Shown here in pieces: positions 3,014-20,937 of a DNA stretch of 64,000 bases. The notes under the pieces are model-generated. The model did no database searches, had not been told where the DNA came from, and was given only the letters and a program-made list of their open reading frames with translations. The DNA lies in contig CM000151.3 in assembly GCA_000004695.1 (NCBI GenBank), positions 5,824,001 through 5,888,000 of the forward strand, given 5' to 3'. Origin of the DNA: Dictyostelium discoideum. Taxonomy: Eukaryota. Numbering within the stretch: position 1 is the first letter of the stretch; the number at the start of each line of letters is the position of its first letter. The position numbers and the translations under genes are program-made.

Positions 3014-3819
3014 AATAATATCTTCTTACCTGTTGTATTATTTTTAATTCAAATAATTTTTGTTTTGTTTTTTGTGATTATTATTATTTTGGTAAAGAGA
3101 TAATACAATATGCGTTTTTCTGTAAACTATAAATAAAAACGGTTTTGTTTAGTTTGAAAAAAAAAAATAAAATAAAAAATAAAAATAAAAAATAAAAACA
3201 ATCAAAAAAAAAAAAAAAAAAAAAATTATTTTTGTTTATTTTTTTTTTTTTTTTTTTCTTTGCGACAGAAAGCTTTAATCTGCACCGTGATAAACTGTTT
3301 TTTTTTTTTTTTTTGAAAATTTTTCAAAGTTTTAGTATTAAATATTTTTTTTTACACCAAAGATATCATAGTGACAATGGTTTTGAGAAAATAAAAATTA
3401 AAATGAGATCTGAAATCGAGCATTCAATTATTATAATTTTTTTTTTTTTTCTTTTTTTTTTTCAATAACAGGGAAAAAATAAAAATAAATATCTTCCCGC
3501 TTAAGGAGTTTATTTTTTATTTTTTAATTTATTTTTTAATTTATTTTTTCCCTTCACGCCATCCTACCAAACTCAGGCGTATAGCATTAGTTTTTTTAAT
3601 TTTTTTTTTATTATTTTTTTTTTTCCACACTTTTGACATTTTATTTTTTTTTGTTTAATTTTTTTTTTTTTCCTTAATGTTTTTTTTTTTTTTTTTTTTT
3701 TGATTTGTTTTGGAATGGATTTTTTTTTACCGAAACTTCTTTTTAAAGATAAAAATTGAAAATAACTTTTGATTAATTAAAATTAAATAATTGCAATAAA
3801 TTTGGGTAATAAAAAAAAG

Positions 3820-3820
<1 letters not shown>

Positions 3821-3904
<84 letters not shown>

Positions 3905-3955
3905 TTATTATTATTATTTTTATTATTTTTATTATTATAATATTATTATTTAATT
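3821..3955. repeat. (ATT)n microsatellite of about 40 units with two T insertions near its end.
   Basis: A direct read. It generates the spurious poly-I ORF 3802..4059. Confidence 0.95.
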
Positions 3956-3986
3956 TTTTATTATTATTTAGTTTTTTATTAGGCGC

Positions 3987-4018
<32 letters not shown>

Positions 4019-4168
4019 AAAAAGTTCTGAAAAATCATCGGCGACATTGTTTTTGTTAGTATTGCAAATCATCGAAAACTCCCTTTTTAAATGAAAAAAA
4101 AAAAAAGGTTTTAAAATATGAAAAGTATATACCTTAAAGTCTAATTAAATATGAGAACATTAATAATA

Positions 4169-4204
<36 letters not shown>

Positions 4205-4214
4205 GTTTTTTTTA

Positions 4215-4253
<39 letters not shown>

Positions 4254-4730
4254 AAAAATAAAACAAAAAATTTTTTTTTTTTCAACCACAAAATTTTTTT
4301 TTTTTTTCAATTTTTTTTTTTTTTTTTTTTTTAATAATCATATATTAAAATTCAATCCACCTATTTTAACAAAGAAAGATTAATATCTGCGATTGTGTGT
4401 GCGTGCGTCACAGTAACCAAATTAACGATAATATATAGCTACGACACACCACATCATTTTATATGTGTGCGTGTGTGTGTTTTCCTATATAATAATAATA
4501 TATGCAAATATTCAATATTTTAAAAAAATAAAATAAAAAATAAAAAAAAAAAAAAAACAATTTAATTAACATATATACACACTCCCATTTCATTATAAAA
4601 AAAAAAAAAAAAAAAAAAAATTTTTAAAATTTAAAATTAAAAAATTTAACGGAATTAAACACATAAAGTAATAACAATAAATAATATAATATATAACGAT
4701 ATTAAAGGTATATTTAACGATTTAAGAAAG

Positions 4731-4772
<42 letters not shown>

Positions 4773-4809
4773 ATTAAAATTAAAACAATAATAAAGAAAT
4801 AGATAAAGA

Positions 4810-11178
<6,369 letters not shown>

Positions 11179-11585
11179 AAAAAAAAAAAAACAATAATAT
11201 ATAAAAAACATTGATAGTGATGATTTAATTAAAAAAAAAAAAAAAAAACAAAACAAAACCATTTTATTTTATTTTTTCTTTTATTTATTTTTATTTTCTA
11301 TTTTAAAATATAATTATTTAAAAGTGGAATAGAAAAAATAAATAAAAAAGGAAAAGTTAATAAAAATATATAAACAAAACCATAAAGATTATATTAACCA
11401 TTATCTTAAATTACCATCAAATAGATATTTATTTTTTTATTTTTTTTTTTTTTTATTTTTTCATTTTATTTTTGTTTTTTTGTCCAAAAAAATTAAAACG
11501 ATCAAATTTGATTTTTTTTTTTTTATTTTTCATTTTTTTTTTTTTATTTTTCATTTTTTTTTTTTTTTTTTTTTTTTTTAATAAA

Positions 11586-14483
11586 ATGATAAGATCATCA
11601 ATAAAAAATAAAATAACAACAACAAAAAGTTTATCATGTATTTCATTAATAAATAGACAATATGGTACATCAACAAAAGAAGTACGTGAAACATTTTTAA
11701 ATTATTTTGAAAAAAATGGTCATAAAAGATTACCAAGTGGTAGTTTATTACCATATAATGATAATTCATTATTATTTACAAATGCAGGTAAAGTTTATTA
11801 ATATATAAATATATTTTTTTAAATCATAAAATTAATTATTAATATAAATAATATATTAAATATGATTTTTTTTTTAAAAAAAAAAGGTATGGTACAATTT
11901 AAAAATCAATTTACAGGTAATGAAGAATCAAAATATAAAAAAGTTACAACATCACAAAAATGTGTTAGAGCAGGTGGTAAACATAATGATTTAGATAATG
12001 TTGGATATACAGCAAGACATCATACATTTTTTGAAATGTTGGGTAATTTTTCATTTGGAGGATATAATCATTTTAAAAGAGATTCAATTCAACATGCATG
12101 GGATTTATTGACAAAAGAATATGGTTTACCAAAAGAGAGATTAGCAATTTCAGTTTTAGAGGGTGATGAAGAATCAGCAGAAATTTGGAGAAATCAAATT
12201 GGATTACCAAATGATAAGATTATGTATAAAGGTAGAGAGGATAATTTTTGGTCAATGGGTGATGGTCCTGGACCATGTGGACCATGTTCAGAAATATTTT
12301 GGGATCATGGTAAAGAAGTTGATGGTGAAAGATATTTAGAGATTTGGAATCTCGTTTTTATGCAATATAATAAGAGTGGTAAAGAAGGTGATGAGATGCC
12401 AGTTGACAAATTACCAATACCTTGTGTTGATACAGGTATGGGTTTAGAAAGAATGGCATCGGTTTTACAAGGTAAATTTACAAATTACGATATTGATTTA
12501 TTTCAAAATTTAATTAATTCATTCAAAGAGATTGTAACAATGGATGTTGGTAGAGCACAATTTCAACTTCAACAAGATCCACAAAGAGTTGAAACTGCCT
12601 ACAGAGTGATTGCTGACCATCTAAGATCAATTTCATTTTTAATTTCAGATGGTGTAATTCCATTCAATATTGGTAGAGGTTATGTATTAAGAAAAATTAT
12701 TAGACGTGCATTATCCTATGGTAAAATTTTAGGTTTTAATGGACCTTTTCTCTCAACTTTATTCCCATTATTAGAGAGGGAAATGGGTGATATTTATCCA
12801 CAATTAATTGAACGTTCAAATGAAATTAGAAATGTTATTCTAAATGAAGAGGGTACATTTTATAATGCAATTCAAAGAGGTATACCTTATTTAGAGGAAT
12901 TTGTTCAACAAAATAAATTAAATGAAGAATCATTATTTTTACTTTATAATACTTATGGTTTACCATTGGAAATGTCTCAAGTTAAAGCTAAACAAAATAA
13001 TATTGAAATTGATATGGATAAAGTTAATAAACTTATAGATGAAACTAGAGAACAATCAAGATTAACTTGGAATACATCATCATCATCAAGTGATCAAACT
13101 ACTCAACAAACTACTCAATTACCAGAGAAAACATTTTTATCATGGAAAAGTGATAATATTAAACCAAAATTCATTGGATATAATGGATGTGTTGAAAATG
13201 ATAATTCAAAAGTTTTAAGATCTCACTTTGACAATGATAGTCATTTGGTTTATTTATCATTAGATGAAACTCCATTCTATGGTACTTCAGGTGGTCAAGT
13301 TGGTGATGTTGGTGAATTAATCAATGTTTCAAGTGGTAAAAATGTTTATCGTGTAATTAATACAATTAAACCATATGAAGGTGGTTTAGTTTTAGTAGTT
13401 GAATGGGATCCTTCACAACAATTGGCTTCACAGGTTTATCAAGATTTAAAACAAGATTCATTATTGAATTGTAGAGTGGATCGTTCAATTAGAAATCAAG
13501 TTGCTGTTCATCATAGTGCTACTCATTTGCTACATGCAGCATTAAGAAATGTAATTGGCAAAAGTGTAGTTCAAGCTGGTTCATTGGTTGGTAGTGAATC
13601 ATTACGTTTCGATTTCACACATGGTCAAAAATTAACACCAAATCAAATTGAACAAATTGAACAATGGGTAAATGATGCAATTGCCAAAGATATAGCTTTG
13701 AATACCGATGAAATTCCATATGAACAAGCATCTAAAAATAGTGATACCCTTCAATTATTTAGTGAAAAGTATAGTGAATTGGTACGTGTTGTTAGTATAC
13801 CTGGATTCTCTAAGGAGCTCTGTGGTGGTACACATGTTGAACGTTCATCTTCAATTCATCAATTTAAAATTATAAGTGAAAGTAGTGTAGCAGCAGGAAC
13901 TCGTAGAATTGAAGCAGTGGCAGGTTTAGCAGCAACAAACTTTTTCAAAAATCATTATCAATTAGTTCATCAATTATCAAATAGTATAAATTCGCCAATA
14001 GTTAATTTCCAACAATCATTTGAACGTTTGGTAAATACAAATTCAAAACAAGAAAAAGAAATTTTCGATCTAAAATTAAAGATTGCTCAACTTTCATCTG
14101 TAAATTATAATGGTCAATACAAATCTGATAATGGTGGTGAAATGATACCTTTATCATTACATATTATCGATTGTGAAGATAAAAAAGCATTTACAAAAGT
14201 AACTGAAAACTTTGCAAAAGAATTCTCTTCATCACCAATTCAATTAACAATTAGTAAAGGTGGAAAAGTTTTATGTCAATTATTATCATCATCATCATCC
14301 TCATCCTCCTCATTATCAGCTGATACAGTTTTAAAACAATTATTTAAATCAATTGGTATGGGAAAAGGTGGTGGAAATAAATTAATGGCAAATGCTTCAA
14401 TTCAACCATTAAATAATGAAATTTTAAATTCAATTTTAAATTGGTCAAATGTTAACAACAATTATAATAATAAAAAAAATTAA
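11586..14483 (+). CDS. malaS: Alanyl-tRNA synthetase, probably the mitochondrial isoform. Exon 1 is 11586..11787 and exon 2 is 11887..14483.
   Basis: The class II AlaRS motifs are clear: [51 protein letters not shown] and the editing-domain HxxxH (HHSATHLLH). The donor is AG|GTAAAG at 11788 in phase 1, and the acceptor AG at 11885-86 regenerates the Gly codon, so the protein reads ...FTNAG/MVQF... The N-terminus [29 protein letters not shown] is basic and hydroxyl-rich and looks like a mitochondrial presequence. The gene symbol is from memory and is tentative. Confidence 0.85.
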
Positions 14484-14828
14484 TTTTATTTTATACTTCT
14501 CTTTTTTTTTTGGAAAAGTTATTAAAAAAAAAAGTTGATCTGATGAGTATTTTTTTCATTTCAGCAATGATTTAATTTTATTTATTTTTAATTTGATTTA
14601 GCGTATATAAATAGGACACACAAAAACACACAAGTGATATATATATAAAAAAAAAAAAAATGAATGTAACCATTCTGTTTATTAGTTGAATAACATTCAA
14701 AAAATTTCACATAAAAAAAAAAAATATTTTTTAATTTTTTTTTTTAATTTTTTTTTTAATTTTTTTTTTTTAAATCTCAAACAAACACATTTAAAAGAGC
14801 GAATCAGAGTTCTTTTGTTCATTTTAAA

Positions 14829-17800
14829 ATGCAAAAAATAAAAGAGGGGTACAGGAGGAGACATGATTATATCATTCCTAAATTTATATCCTTTCAATCT
14901 GGATATCTCGATTTCTCATTTTATCAAGTATCGCTAAAAAATGTGAAGTATCTCGATTTATCATCGTATTATCAATTACACGCACCAAGAAGATTTCGAA
15001 AAATTGTGGAGTATCTAAATTTATCATATGGTCAATTACTCACACTAGGAACATTGCCAAAATATGTGATGTCTCTCGATTTATCATCATATAATCAACT
15101 ATTCACACCAGGAAGATTGCCAATTAGGGTGTCTCTCGATTTATCATCATATAATCAACTATTCACACCAGGAAGATTGCCAGATACTGTGGATTATCTC
15201 AAATTATCATCCTATAATCAACTATTCACACCAGGAACATTGCCAAATCATATGGTTTATCTCAATTTATCATCCTATAATCAACCATTAACACCTGGAA
15301 CATTACCAAATAAGGTGAAGTATCTCGTTTTATCATCGTATAATCAATTACTCACACCTGGAACATTACCAAATAATGTGAAGTATGTCGATTTATCATC
15401 ATATAATAAATTACTCACACCTGAAACATTACCAAATAAGGTGAAGTATCTCGTTTTATCATCGTATGATCAATTACTCACACCTGGAACATTACCAAAT
15501 AATGTGAAGTGTGTCGATTTATCATCATATGATAAATTACTCACACCTGGAACATTACCAAATAATGTGAAGTATGTCGATTTATCATCATATAATAAAT
15601 TACTCACACCTAGAACATTACCAAATAATGTGGAGTGTCTCGTTTTATCATCGTATAATCAATTACTCACACCTGGAATATTGCCAAATTATGTGAAGTA
15701 TCTCGATATATCATCATATAATCAATTACTCACACCTGGAACATTGTCAAATAATGTAGAGTATCTCGATTTATCATCATATAATCAAGTACTCGCACCT
15801 AAAACTATTCCAAATAATGTTAAGTGTCTCGATTGTCCATCTTATAAGCAATCACTCATATCTGAAACATTTCCCAATAGGGTTGGAGATCTCGAATTAT
15901 CCGATCACCCAAAACATGTCAATGATAACTGGGAAATTATTAAACCTCAAAAGAATATATCAGAAAATAAAGTTTATTATACCACCAAACATAAAAATGT
16001 AAGCATAATTATTTAAAATCACTTTAAATTTCCTCCAATCATTCAAATTAAATTTAATTAACCCATTGTTAATAGGCCAAGATTATAGATGTTTTAAATA
16101 TTTGCAAATGCTCTCTAAAGTTATATGGATATGTTAAAGATAGAAATAACGAATTTAACATTTATTTCGAATATATTGATAAAGCAATTCCATTATCTAG
16201 GTTATTGGAAAAGCTCAATAAAAAAGAACAATTTATTGTAGCTACTGAAATAATCAAATCAATAAAGAGTATTCATGAAATGGGTATAATTCATTTTGAT
16301 ATTAAATGCCAAAATATTCTTATTCTTTATGATGAAAATGAAAAAATGTTACCGACAGATTTTATTAAGATAATTGGCTTTGACCATTCAACATTAGATT
16401 CAGAAGTAAATTCAAATATTATTGGTGTAACAGAAACTCATATGGCGCCAGAAATTAAATTAAAAAATGGTAAATTAGGTTATAAATCAGATATCTGGAG
16501 TTTAGGTTGTACATTAATTGAAATTGTAGGTGGTAACCTAAAATTACTAGATATTAATGGTATTCCTTTAATTCCTGATCATTTATCAAATCTTTTTAAA
16601 AACACTATCCAACATTGTTTACAAATCAATCCAAATGCTAGATTCAATGCCAATGAATTGTACAACTATGTAATTAAAGACAGCATAATGGAACCAATAG
16701 AACCAATTTACCTTCCCAATCAATGTACCAATTTACCATTATTCAATGAGGTAATTGTTCCATCAGGTTTTTTTGGTATAAAATATTTAGAATTACAAGC
16801 CTACAATCAACCAATTGATAGTATATTTATCTTTAATGGTGTAGAGTATTTAATATTACAATCATTCAACCATCCTTTAGGTCCAGGTATATTACCAGAA
16901 AGTATTAAGTATTTAAAACTACCATCCTTTAACCATCCTCTTAAAGAAGGATCAATTCCTCGATCAGTAATACACCTTGTATTTAATAAATTTAATCAAT
17001 TTTCTCTAGATGAAATAAACTTAATTCTTCCAAAATTTTTAGACTTTGGTGATGCATTCGATATTGAAAAATATGGGATTTTAATTCCTGAAGATTCAAT
17101 CCTAACACTAAGAACTGGATTTACATTTAACCAACCCATTAATCAAAGATACATCCCTTCTTCAGTTACAGATCTACAATTATACAACTACAATTTAAAA
17201 ATACTACCCCATAGTATTCCTCGGTCAATAATAATGCTAACACTCGGTTCAAATTTCACTCACTTTGAATCATTATCAAATCTTCCATCATCAATTATCA
17301 ATTTGACATTCGGTTTCAAAAACAATTTTAAAATAGCGGAGTTAAAAAAATATATACCATCACATATCACATCAATAAACATCAATGGTAAAATAGTTAA
17401 TTTTAAAAAATCATCACCTTTAAACACATTTAATCAATCGACAGATAATATATTAAATAATAATGAGCATTTTAAGGAGGATTGGGAAATTATTTCAACA
17501 TTAGGAAGTGGCAATTTTGGAAAAGTATTTAAGGCAAGAAAAATCAATGGAATCATAAATGGATCAAAAGTATCGTTGTGTGCAATAAAAAAAATTGAAA
17601 AAAAAGATAAATTAAAAATTGTATGTATTCATATGAAAATTATATTTTTTTTAAAAACACTAACATTAAAAAACAATTAAATTTTAAAATAGAAATTATC
17701 AACAGAGGTTGAGATTTTAAATAAATTAAAAGATAATGAACATTCAATGAAATACTATGGTTATGGATACGATGAAGATGATAATCTATTTATTTATACA

Positions 17801-19021
17801 GAATACATTGAAGGTTCCACATCTATTTCAGACCTAATAAAAAAAAAACCAAATAATAGATTTGAAGAGGAAGAAATAAAATCTTTAATGATTAAAATTG
17901 TCAAAGCGCTAAGTAAAATTCACGAATCAGGTGTTATTCATCGTGATATTAAAAGTGATCACATCATTTTGGCTCAAGATAAAAATAATGAAACCATTGT
18001 AAAATTCATAGATTTTGGATTATCAAAACAAATTGAAAAGAATTCAAAGTATTATTCATTTGTAGGTACAGATTCACACATGGCACCAGAAGTTAAATTA
18101 CAAAATGGTAAAGCAGGTAGTAAATCCGATATTTTTTGTATAGGTTGCACAATGATTGAAATGGCTGGTTTGAATTTGTGCCATTCTGAAAGAGATGATA
18201 AAGGTATACCCTCAATACCAACACACCTATCCAATTCATTCAAAAATATAATTCAAAATTGTTTAAAGTTTGACACAAACGCTAGGCATAGTGTTGAAAG
18301 TTTAATTATTACCTTGTCTAATGTAAGGGTTAAATATAAATTACAAAGAAAGAAACCCATTCTAATTTTTTTTTAAAAATTTGTAAAAAATTTTATCTAG
18401 ATTCAAATTGAAGGCGATTCAGTATTTGAAAAGTATTTATCACCAAATTTAAAGAAATTAGAATTAAAAACCAATGAACCAATTTTATTAGGATCAATTG
18501 GTAATGAAATAAACTACCTTTCATTACCAATTTATAACCAAATGATAACACCAGGAGCTTTACCACCATCTGTTCAATATCTCTTATTTAATAAATTAAA
18601 TCAATACCTTGAATGTGATTCAATACCAGAATCAGTTAAATATTTAGATTTAGGTAATGAATTTGACATTGAAAAAAATGGAATTAATCTTTCAAACGAA
18701 TCAATATTAGTACTTAGATGTGGTTTTAATTTTACACAACCAGTTAGCCAAAGACTCCTACCTTATTCTGTAACAGATTTACAATTATACAACTATAATA
18801 TTAATTTAAAAAGAAACAGTATTCCAACATTAGTTACATCGCTCACTCTTGGTTCAAATTTCACAAACATCGAATCCCTTTCATTTCTTCCCGAAAATGT
18901 CAATAGTTTAGCAATAGGTATTAAAGATGAAGATGAAAAACTAACCAAAGAAATAGAAAAAATAATACAAACAAAAAAAAGCATTACCTCCTTTAAAATA
19001 AATGGAATACAAAGAAATTAA
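14829..19021 (+). CDS. FNIP-repeat protein carrying two protein-kinase domains in tandem, a degenerate pseudokinase followed by an active Ser/Thr kinase. The four exons are 14829..15998, 16076..17620, 17693..18322 and 18401..19021.
   Basis: Repeats of about 22 aa (YLDLSSYNQLLTPGTLPNNVKY; later FNHPL and TFNQPINQRYIPSSVTDLQLYNYN) match the Dictyostelium FNIP-repeat family. The first kinase domain lacks a Gly-loop (IKPQKNISENKVYYTTKHKN), has HFD instead of HRD, and has GFD (IGFDHS) instead of DFG, although it keeps APE (HMAPEIK). The second kinase domain has GSGNFGKV, AIKKI, HRDIK, DFG and APE. Splice sites are canonical and frame-preserving: N|GTAAGC at 15999 with ..AATAG|GCC at 16075, KI|GTATGT at 17621 with ..AATAG|AAA at 17692, and NV|GTAAGG at 18323 with ..TCTAG|ATT at 18400. 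Confidence 0.7.
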
Positions 19022-19230
19022 TAAATTATTTAATATTTATTTATATTTTTCTTTGTTTTTTTTAAAATTATTTTGATGAAAAACTAACGTAATAAATAGA
19101 AAAAATAACAAAAACAAAAAAAAAAAAAGTATTACCTCTTTCAAAATAAATGGAATACAAATAAATTAATAAAATTATTTAATATTTATTTATATTTTTC
19201 TTTGTTTTTTTTTAAAATTATTTTGATTTT
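18970..19230 (+). repeat. Tandem duplication of about 105 bp covering the last codons and 3' UTR of the FNIP kinase gene. The copies lie at about 18972-19078 and 19125-19229 and are roughly 90% identical.
   Basis: The first copy reads aaaagcattacctcctttaaaataaatggaatacaaagaaattaataaattatttaatatttatttatatttttctttgttttttttaaaattattttgat. The second reads aaagtattacctctttcaaaataaatggaatacaaataaattaataaaattatttaatatttatttatatttttctttgtttttttttaaaattattttgat. Confidence 0.8.
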
Positions 19231-20030
19231 AAAATTAAATGTTTATCAATTGGTGAAAGTTTTTGATAATTATGAGATTGCATTATAAAGGATGGACTTA
19301 AAAATAAAACATTTGGATATTTTTGTTTTGTAATATCAAATAAACGATCCCATACAGTTTTATCAGTGATAATAAATTTGGTTGAATTTGTTGGAATTGA
19401 AGAAATTGAACCTTTATATGCTGTAATTAAACGAACAATATTCTTTCTTAAAGCTTCATCTTTTACGCTAAGATAAAATTCAAATCCCTCAAAAAATGAT
19501 GGAAGTGGATTTAAAATATCTAAATTGAAAGAAGAAAAAAAAAAAAAAATTAGATACTAAACTTTTTGAATTATAAAATATAAATATTATTTTAAACTTA
19601 CATTCTTTGCCCTTAAAATCGTGTGGGTTATTCTTTGGTAATTGAGTTGAACATTTTTCTGGAATAATAGAATCTTTGACTTGGTTTTTATTTGTAGTTG
19701 ATTGTGATGATTGTTGTGATAGTGATGATTTTTTACTATTGCCTTCCAAATAATCGTCAGTTGTTGATTTATTTGGAGAAGTTGGTCCATTTATTGTTGA
19801 TTTATTATTATTCTTACTATTATTTTTATTATTGCTGTTTTCATTATTTTCATTATCATTGCCATTATTATAATTATTTACAAGTCTATCAATTTCTTCT
19901 TTAATTTGTTCAGGTGTCATTAATACTGTATCATGATTATCAAATAATGAATCATCATCAAATTCGTCAAGTTTTTGTTGTTTTGGTTTATATGAAATCT
20001 TTTCTTCTTTTTCTTTTTTATCTTTGTTTT

Positions 20031-20062
<32 letters not shown>

Positions 20063-20937
20063 GTTGTTAATTGGGATTCATCATCATTATCATTATTATT
20101 TGTTTTATTCTTACTGCTACCGCTACTACTACTATTACTATTATTATTATTATTATTATTATAATCATATTCTTCATTATAATATTTGTTTGGTTTATAA
20201 GAAGGTGAAGATTTATAAGTATTATTATTATTATTATCAGATGAATGATGATTTTTTTGTTTTTTATGATATGGATTATGTTGAATTAAATCTCTATCAG
20301 GTTTATAACCATAAGTTCTTTTTAAATAATCCAAACCATCATTTAAGAGATCATCAACATTTTCATGAACATGATCATCCAAATGATCAGGATCTTTTTC
20401 TTTATCATCATCGGAAGCTTCAGATGAAGAGAAACTATTATCAATGAAACCATCATTGTAATCATAAACATTTGGTATATGACTATCATCATCACTATCA
20501 TCTGAACCTGGTGCACCTTTCTTTTTTCTTTTTTTACTTGTTGAATCTGTACTAATGGTTTTCTTTGCTTTTTTAGCTGATGCTATCTTTTCTGCTATAT
20601 CATCTTGTTGACCATCACTATCACTATGGTCATCTTGGAATGTATAGTTTTTAATTGGTAATCTTGATTTCAATTTATAACAATCTTCAATCCATTTTGG
20701 TTTAATTATTGAACCACCTGATTTTTGTGCAATTTTAAATTTATCTGTACCCCTAAATGGTGTCACTAGATGAGTTGCCTCTCTACACCAATCTGGTTTA
20801 TATCCAGCTCCCATCTCTAATGCTTTTTCACGAATTTCACCTCTTTGTGGATTTTGAATACCACCAATTACTAATACTACTCCTTTCTATATAAAGAAAT
20901 TTAAAAAAAAAAAAAAAAATTTAAAATTAATTATAAT

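Follow-up and report, generated by a model that had tools for sequence, protein, structure and literature searches.

The dual-domain FNIP-repeat kinase gene fnkE of Dictyostelium discoideum: a predicted pseudokinase and a kinase in duplicated modules

The Dictyostelium kinome of Goldberg et al. 2006 (PMC1420674) includes dual-domain kinases that combine an inactive with an active domain, and its main text compares them with Jak and GCN2. One of them is listed in Table S2 as FNIPK-E (fnkE, row DDB0229870), a dual-domain protein ("partial kd/kd") predicted to be inactive/active, with the motifs HFDIKCQN/HRDIKSDH and GFD/DFG. Other members of the same subfamily (STE/Dicty3/FNIPK), fnkA-D, share with fnkE a kinase followed by an FNIP tail, as do single-module genes of D. 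purpureum (e.g. DICPUDRAFT_98488), but each has one kinase domain, canonical in fnkA (HRDLKCDN/DFG). A further dual-domain FNIPK of D. discoideum, fnkF_ps (DDB0203080p), shows the fnkE pattern (HFDIKCQN/HRDIKGDH, GFD/DFG) and the same annotation as fnkE ("lacks G52 and K72 ... H instead of N171"), but is annotated as a pseudogene and lies outside the window studied here. This window is a stretch of 64,000 nucleotides from D. discoideum AX4, and positions are counted from its first letter. Within it, fnkE (DDB_G0275879) occupies 14829..19021 on the forward strand, from ATG to TAA, with four exons encoding 1321 aa. The spliced translation was 100% identical (1321/1321 aa) to the deposited protein (XP_643528.1 / EAL69690.1 / UniProt Q552Z2), named "Probable serine/threonine-protein kinase fnkE".

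We find it very probable that, as a whole, the locus is best read as the known fnkE, in which the first kinase-like domain (KD-a) is a pseudokinase, the second (KD-b) is a kinase, and both belong to a duplicated module, with functional roles that we infer below. The gene and its exon structure, the dual-domain layout and the inactive/active prediction were already known from the kinome paper and from databases (2005-2006). Because the layout, the lesions and the likeness to Jak and GCN2 are all found in Goldberg et al. 2006, the core finding and its interpretation had been published before this analysis. What is added here is modest: the boundaries of the module duplication, estimates of selection, the loss of the N-lobe across species and corrections of detail. 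The locus carries little weight as a discovery; its remaining value lies in illustrating how a recent duplication within a gene led to a pseudokinase whose C-lobe is still selected and whose N-lobe is lost, and a wet-lab study of fnkE could still inform.

The product is a cytosolic protein of the STE group and FNIPK subfamily. Members of this subfamily are recognised by their listing in the kinome paper and by kinase domains that group with those of FNIPK-A and FNIPK-B. The sequence of the product is that of the listed FNIPK-E. In the kinome tree as deposited by Goldberg et al., the two fnkE domains, Ea and Eb, are sisters, Ea sitting on a long branch, and Figure S1 of the same paper aligns them from residues 368 and 860 (PMC1420674). 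Pfam profiles matched the 1321-aa product in 14 stretches for FNIP (PF05725; 314.2 bits, E 9.5e-96), which identifies it as an FNIP repeat protein, and in two stretches for Pkinase (PF00069; 224.4 bits, gathering score 31.7, E 2.1e-66), the better one covering aa 861-1109. The coordinates of all features are given in the table.

Features of fnkE in the window (KD-a, KD-b: kinase-like domains; LRR: leucine-rich repeat; TRF: Tandem Repeats Finder)
Feature	Positions	Strand	Basis or remark
Exon 1	14829-15998	+	spliced model equals deposited protein
N-terminal FNIP/LRR array	14936..15901	+	TRF 83% matches, 15.4 copies, 63-nt (21-aa) period, consensus ..LDLSSYNQLLTPGTLPNNVKY..
Exact 53-nt direct repeat, 60-nt period	15070-15122 = 15130-15182	+	offset scan
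Longest exact array repeat, 77 nt, copies offset by three repeat units (189 nt)	15346-15422 = 15535-15611	+	offset scan
KD-a, predicted pseudokinase, aa 367-592, interrupted by intron 1	15927..16681	+	alignment to PKA and KD-b
Intron 1	15999-16075	+	77 nt, GT..AG, GC 0.21; cuts KD-a N-lobe remnant just before helix C
Exon 2	16076-17620	+	spliced model equals deposited protein
HFD in place of HRD, KD-a	16292..16300	+	alignment; Table S2
GFD at DFG position, KD-a	16376..16384	+	Mg-binding Asp (PKA D184) replaced by Gly; relatives GFD or GFK
APE, KD-a	16445-16453	+	alignment
Middle FNIP/LRR region (tail A)	16703..17425	+	homologous to C-terminal tail
KD-b, aa 859-1115, split by intron 2	17480..18322	+	best Pfam Pkinase stretch 861-1109
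GSGNFG, KD-b	17504-17521	+	alignment
AIK Lys895 codon, KD-b	17588-17590	+	alignment
Intron 2	17621-17692	+	72 nt, GT..AG, GC 0.13; cuts KD-b before helix C
Exon 3	17693-18322	+	spliced model equals deposited protein
HRDIKSDH, KD-b	17939-17962	+	alignment
His995 codon at PKA N171 position, KD-b	17960..17962	+	alignment to PKA; RSK2 "ENILL" aligns there
DFG, KD-b	18011-18019	+	alignment
Intron 3	18323-18400	+	78 nt, GT..AG, GC 0.18; separates KD-b from tail B
Exon 4	18401-19021	+	C-terminal FNIP/LRR tail B plus stop

A pseudokinase can be recognised as a kinase fold that lacks at least one of the residues equivalent to PKA K72, D166 and D184. Residues of KD-a were aligned with those of KD-b and of PKA. 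KD-a has Gly in place of D184; in addition, it has no Gly-loop and is about 23 residues shorter than KD-b around beta2/beta3, and no VAIK lysine can be aligned. A phmmer search against the PDB aligned KD-a from about beta4/5 onward only. A first-pass annotation, made from the letters alone, had called this domain a pseudokinase, and the call withstood re-alignment, which revealed neither a Gly-loop nor a DFG Asp. Its list of lesions (loss of the Gly-loop, HFD, GFD, with APE kept) is accurate as a description, but HFD should not be counted as a catalytic lesion, since it alters the Arg only: the catalytic Asp (PKA D166) remains, as does the Asn of HFDIKCQN (N171).

The claim that KD-a retains the overall fold applies to the C-lobe but not to the N-lobe remnant. 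Using AlphaFold2 with eight aligned sequences, we obtained a model of KD-a with a predicted local distance difference test score (pLDDT) of 69 overall and a predicted template modelling score (pTM) of 0.70. The C-lobe reached a pLDDT of 74-91, and the N-lobe remnant, predicted to form some strands and a short helix C, stayed below 50. When this model was compared with the PDB using Foldseek, the top matches were all protein kinases, at TM scores of about 0.5-0.6; they included MEK1, PAK1/2, ASK1, MST3, RET and the STK40 pseudokinase. We conclude that KD-a is a predicted pseudokinase, for which the model supports a kinase fold in the C-lobe only.

The dual-domain layout is common to three other genomes of the D. 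discoideum group (L001, L004 and L005) and to D. firmibasis, which has two paralogues (L002). To quantify constraint, ratios of nonsynonymous to synonymous substitution rates (dN/dS) were estimated pairwise by the Nei-Gojobori method in four close genomes. They were 0.4-1.7 for the N-lobe remnant of KD-a and 0.31-0.55 for its C-lobe, 0.17-0.45 and 0.15-0.32 for the N- and C-lobes of KD-b, and 0.30-0.41 and 0.35-0.57 for the middle (tail A) and C-terminal (tail B) FNIP regions. The ratio of the N-lobe remnant could not be distinguished from 1 (p 0.12-1), and that of the KD-a C-lobe was significantly below 1 in the three divergent pairs (p 0.002-0.02). Between the C-lobes of KD-a and KD-b, counts of nonsynonymous and synonymous changes did not differ significantly (Fisher p 0.10-0.85). 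Identity to D. firmibasis was 60-64% for the C-lobe of KD-a and 60-66% for that of KD-b, and 39 of the 51 positions of the N-lobe remnant are absent in that species. HFDIKC.N, THMAPE and KSDIWSLGCTLIE were invariant across six proteins. Collectively, these comparisons indicate that the C-lobe of KD-a is under purifying selection and conserved to the same degree as the active kinase. The N-lobe appears dispensable, evolving nearly neutrally and being essentially gone in D. firmibasis.

The same data bear on whether KD-a could be a functionless, decaying relic of the duplication that stays in frame only because it lies between useful parts. The near-neutral N-lobe remnant, its loss in D. firmibasis, a 7-aa indel between isolates and a nonsynonymous-to-synonymous ratio somewhat higher in the KD-a C-lobe than in KD-b all speak for such a relic. 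They are countered by the significantly low dN/dS of this C-lobe, by the lack of a significant difference from the C-lobe of KD-b, by an interspecific identity matching that of the active domain and by the invariant motifs, and we consider the relic unlikely. As for the indel, the N-lobe remnant of AX4 (15927-15998) has lost 21 nt in frame, or 7 aa of the KYIYEEY type, relative to three other isolates (L001 about 4045-4140). An atypical but active KD-a that uses alternative residues would be compatible with the retained D166 and N171 equivalents and with an Asp found two residues past the normal DFG Asp, in GFD. We judge it very improbable, however, given the gaps described above (Gly-loop, beta3 Lys and ~23 N-lobe residues) and an N-lobe that is unconstrained and has been deleted in D. 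firmibasis although the C-lobe was kept. KD-a thus remains, in our reading, a pseudokinase with a selected C-lobe.

Judged by the Manning/Goldberg criteria for a catalytically competent kinase, KD-b possesses equivalents of the three primary residues, namely K895 (AIK) for K72, D990 (HRD) for D166 and D1012 (DFG) for D184, in alignments with PKA and RSK2, and APE is present. Among the secondary residues, equivalents of G52, E91 and D220 are found, and N171 is replaced by His995. The best phmmer matches in the PDB were the N-terminal kinase of RSK2, TNIK and MST, at E 5e-25. The description of this second kinase as fully canonical in the first-pass annotation is therefore incorrect, His995 standing in place of the catalytic-loop Asn (HRDIKSDH). 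Three other isolates share this substitution, as do both D. firmibasis paralogues, and Table S2 already notes that the domain "lacks N171", with the rating "aq", active-qualified (PMC1420674). For fnkE the "VAIK motif" cell of that table reads VAIK/LAPK. VAIK occurs nowhere in the protein and LAPK is found at aa 322, inside an FNIP repeat; the cell looks mis-extracted, as KD-b really has CAIK.

His995 raises the alternative that both domains are catalytically dead, KD-b through this substitution, and that the protein is an LRR/pseudokinase scaffold. Consistent with this, the residue replaced is a metal-coordinating Asn, the His is fixed in the discoideum/firmibasis group, and predictions of inactivity are frequent among FNIPK members (fnkC, fnkD). 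Nevertheless, KD-b keeps its Gly-loop and equivalents of K72, E91, D166, D184, APE, D220 and R280, its dN/dS is the lowest in the gene, and Goldberg et al. rated it as active, with a qualification. A wholly inactive protein is thus quite unlikely in our view, and we retain KD-b as the probable kinase of the pair.

The two domains belong to larger repeated units. The segment from aa 356 to 855 (KD-a and the middle FNIP region) aligned with aa 846-1321 (KD-b and the C-terminal FNIP region) at 41% identity over 441 aa (E 1e-84), up to the last residues (ITSININGK vs ITSFKINGI). The alignment extends from the kinase through the end of the tail, and the tandem duplication thus comprises the whole module. 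By this comparison fnkE consists of an N-terminal array of 21-aa repeats followed by two tandem copies of a module made of a kinase and an FNIP tail of ~210 aa. The dual-domain layout is found in both D. discoideum and D. firmibasis, with the C-lobe of KD-a conserved, and the internal duplication is therefore older than the split between these species.

D. purpureum was dropped for dating the duplication, as its deposited dual-domain model of 1120 aa looks chimeric. This model, XP_003288828, spans 12.8 kb across several single modules. In D. purpureum GL871089 (L003), at 3237-16819, at least six single modules of kinase plus FNIP tail, distributed over both strands, are packed into about 14 kb. 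A further homologue search with KD-a and its tail returned only three matches and did not widen the phylogenetic range. In D. firmibasis (CM069770, L002; 5011-5705 and 13883-16814) two intact fnkE-like dual-domain paralogues lie in opposite orientation, and short fragments of KD-a, tail and KD-b occur just upstream of one of them; these fragments are probably a decayed third copy.

Several features support the view that the four exons form one gene, as had been proposed in the first-pass annotation together with canonical, phase-consistent introns. All four exon lengths are divisible by 3, which puts every junction in phase 0, and all three introns are bounded by GT and AG. In-frame stops are present in each intron, and splicing is therefore required for a continuous protein. 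The GC content of the introns is 0.13-0.21, that of the exons 0.26-0.32. Introns 1 and 2 split the kinase domains at nearly equivalent sites, before helix C, in both copies, and exon 2 runs unbroken from KD-a through tail A into the N-lobe of KD-b. The first in-frame ATG of exon 4 is not reached until 18542, after 47 codons that are conserved at the protein level across species. The syntenic isolate L001 (95% nucleotide identity) has kept the three introns together with their splice sites. Intron 1 is absent in D. firmibasis, where the N-lobe of KD-a is absent too. Divergence between isolates was 0.03-0.07 in introns versus 0.04 in exons and was not discriminating.

If the four open reading frame fragments instead represented two or more separate genes, a precedent would exist in D. 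purpureum, with its single kinase-plus-FNIP-tail genes (P0029, 479 aa) and its array of such modules. Kinase domains split by introns 1 and 2, stops in every intron, the unbroken exon 2, an exon 4 without a start for 47 conserved codons and a curated annotation identical to the four-exon model make separate genes extremely improbable. A single four-exon gene is thus the model used throughout. A tblastn search of the rest of the window with the fnkE protein found no paralogue and no copy of fnkF_ps.

In the mechanism that we propose, KD-b would act as the catalytic engine, with the caveat of His at N171, and the FNIP solenoids may bind proteins and thereby select partners or substrates. The conserved C-lobe of KD-a could have a role outside catalysis, as a docking site or allosteric partner of KD-b or of KD-b substrates. 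The intramolecular regulation that the first-pass annotation suggested from a JAK-like arrangement is a hypothesis. Certain points weigh against the overall reading. The His at N171 leaves the activity of KD-b uncertain. An AlphaFold model of aa 356-1321 (966 aa, 6 sequences) had a pTM of 0.31 and a mean pLDDT of 56.7 and was uninformative on contacts between KD-a and KD-b. The gene models of the orthologues were possibly transferred from AX4 and are hence not independent for splicing. The searched literature yielded no paper naming DDB_G0275879, no functional paper on fnkE and no functional study of any FNIP kinase.

A more specific version, which we put forward only tentatively, is that KD-a is a selected "half-kinase", of which only the C-lobe, with the activation segment and helices F to I, is kept as a docking or allosteric module. 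The cell could then do without the ATP-binding N-lobe, which is being eroded in D. discoideum and has been lost in D. firmibasis, and the partner KD-b would have an altered metal site (N171His). If this conjecture were true, fnkE would be a natural case of a pseudokinase reduced to its C-lobe that regulates, from the far side of an LRR spacer, the kinase paralogous to it.

The FNIP repeats show signs of recent change of their own. The N-terminal array is highly unstable in length among isolates and species, the HFD motif being located anywhere from aa 212 to aa 663 across deposited models, and the AX4 array has fresh internal duplications (the exact 53-nt and 77-nt repeats). An exact 66-nt duplication reported in the first-pass annotation at 15061-15192 was not recovered: its halves match at 13/66 positions, and the true exact repeat there is 53 nt long with a period of 60. 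Nor are the repeats specific to Dictyostelium, as had been stated, since PF05725 is also present in giant viruses, Polysphondylium and a brown alga; FNIP repeats form solenoids of the LRR type and also abound in giant viruses and other taxa (PMC9525666). At the other end of the gene, a 148-bp tandem duplication at 18932..19227 (+; 89% match, 2.0 copies by TRF) takes in the final ~29 codons of fnkE and its 3' untranslated region, with the second copy 3' of the stop codon. The unit is single in isolate L001, and the duplication therefore arose in the AX4 lineage.

fnkE is flanked upstream by an alanyl-tRNA synthetase gene (11862-14483, +) and downstream, on the opposite strand, by a gene with XRCC1_N/BRCT domains (19489-20814, -). 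This neighbourhood is kept in L001 and L004, and is not in L005 or D. firmibasis.

Among known systems, the ROCO/LRRK family and the Polysphondylium FGxxFN-LRR kinases resemble fnkE in fusing an LRR-type solenoid to a protein kinase, and in such proteins the LRR has been proposed to give partner specificity (PMC9525666). fnkE differs from ROCO/LRRK in that it has no Roc/COR GTPase module, its repeats are of the FNIP type and not typical LRRs, and it has two kinase-like domains. In the JAKs (JH2-JH1) and GCN2, as in fnkE, one polypeptide carries an inactive kinase-like domain towards its N terminus and a kinase towards its C terminus, and to this extent, a dead-plus-live tandem, the description of fnkE as JAK-like is apt. 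It does not extend to membership of the JAK family: Pfam gives FNIP and kinase families only, with no FERM or SH2, and the best PDB relatives are PAK, MST, TNIK and RSK. HisRS-like and RWD domains are likewise missing from fnkE. JAK JH2 retains nucleotide-binding elements in its N-lobe, whereas KD-a is without the ATP-binding elements of that lobe. Finally, in contrast to JAK and GCN2, the two domains of fnkE are recent paralogues, both in the STE group and derived from one STE-type module, with about 265 aa of LRR between them.

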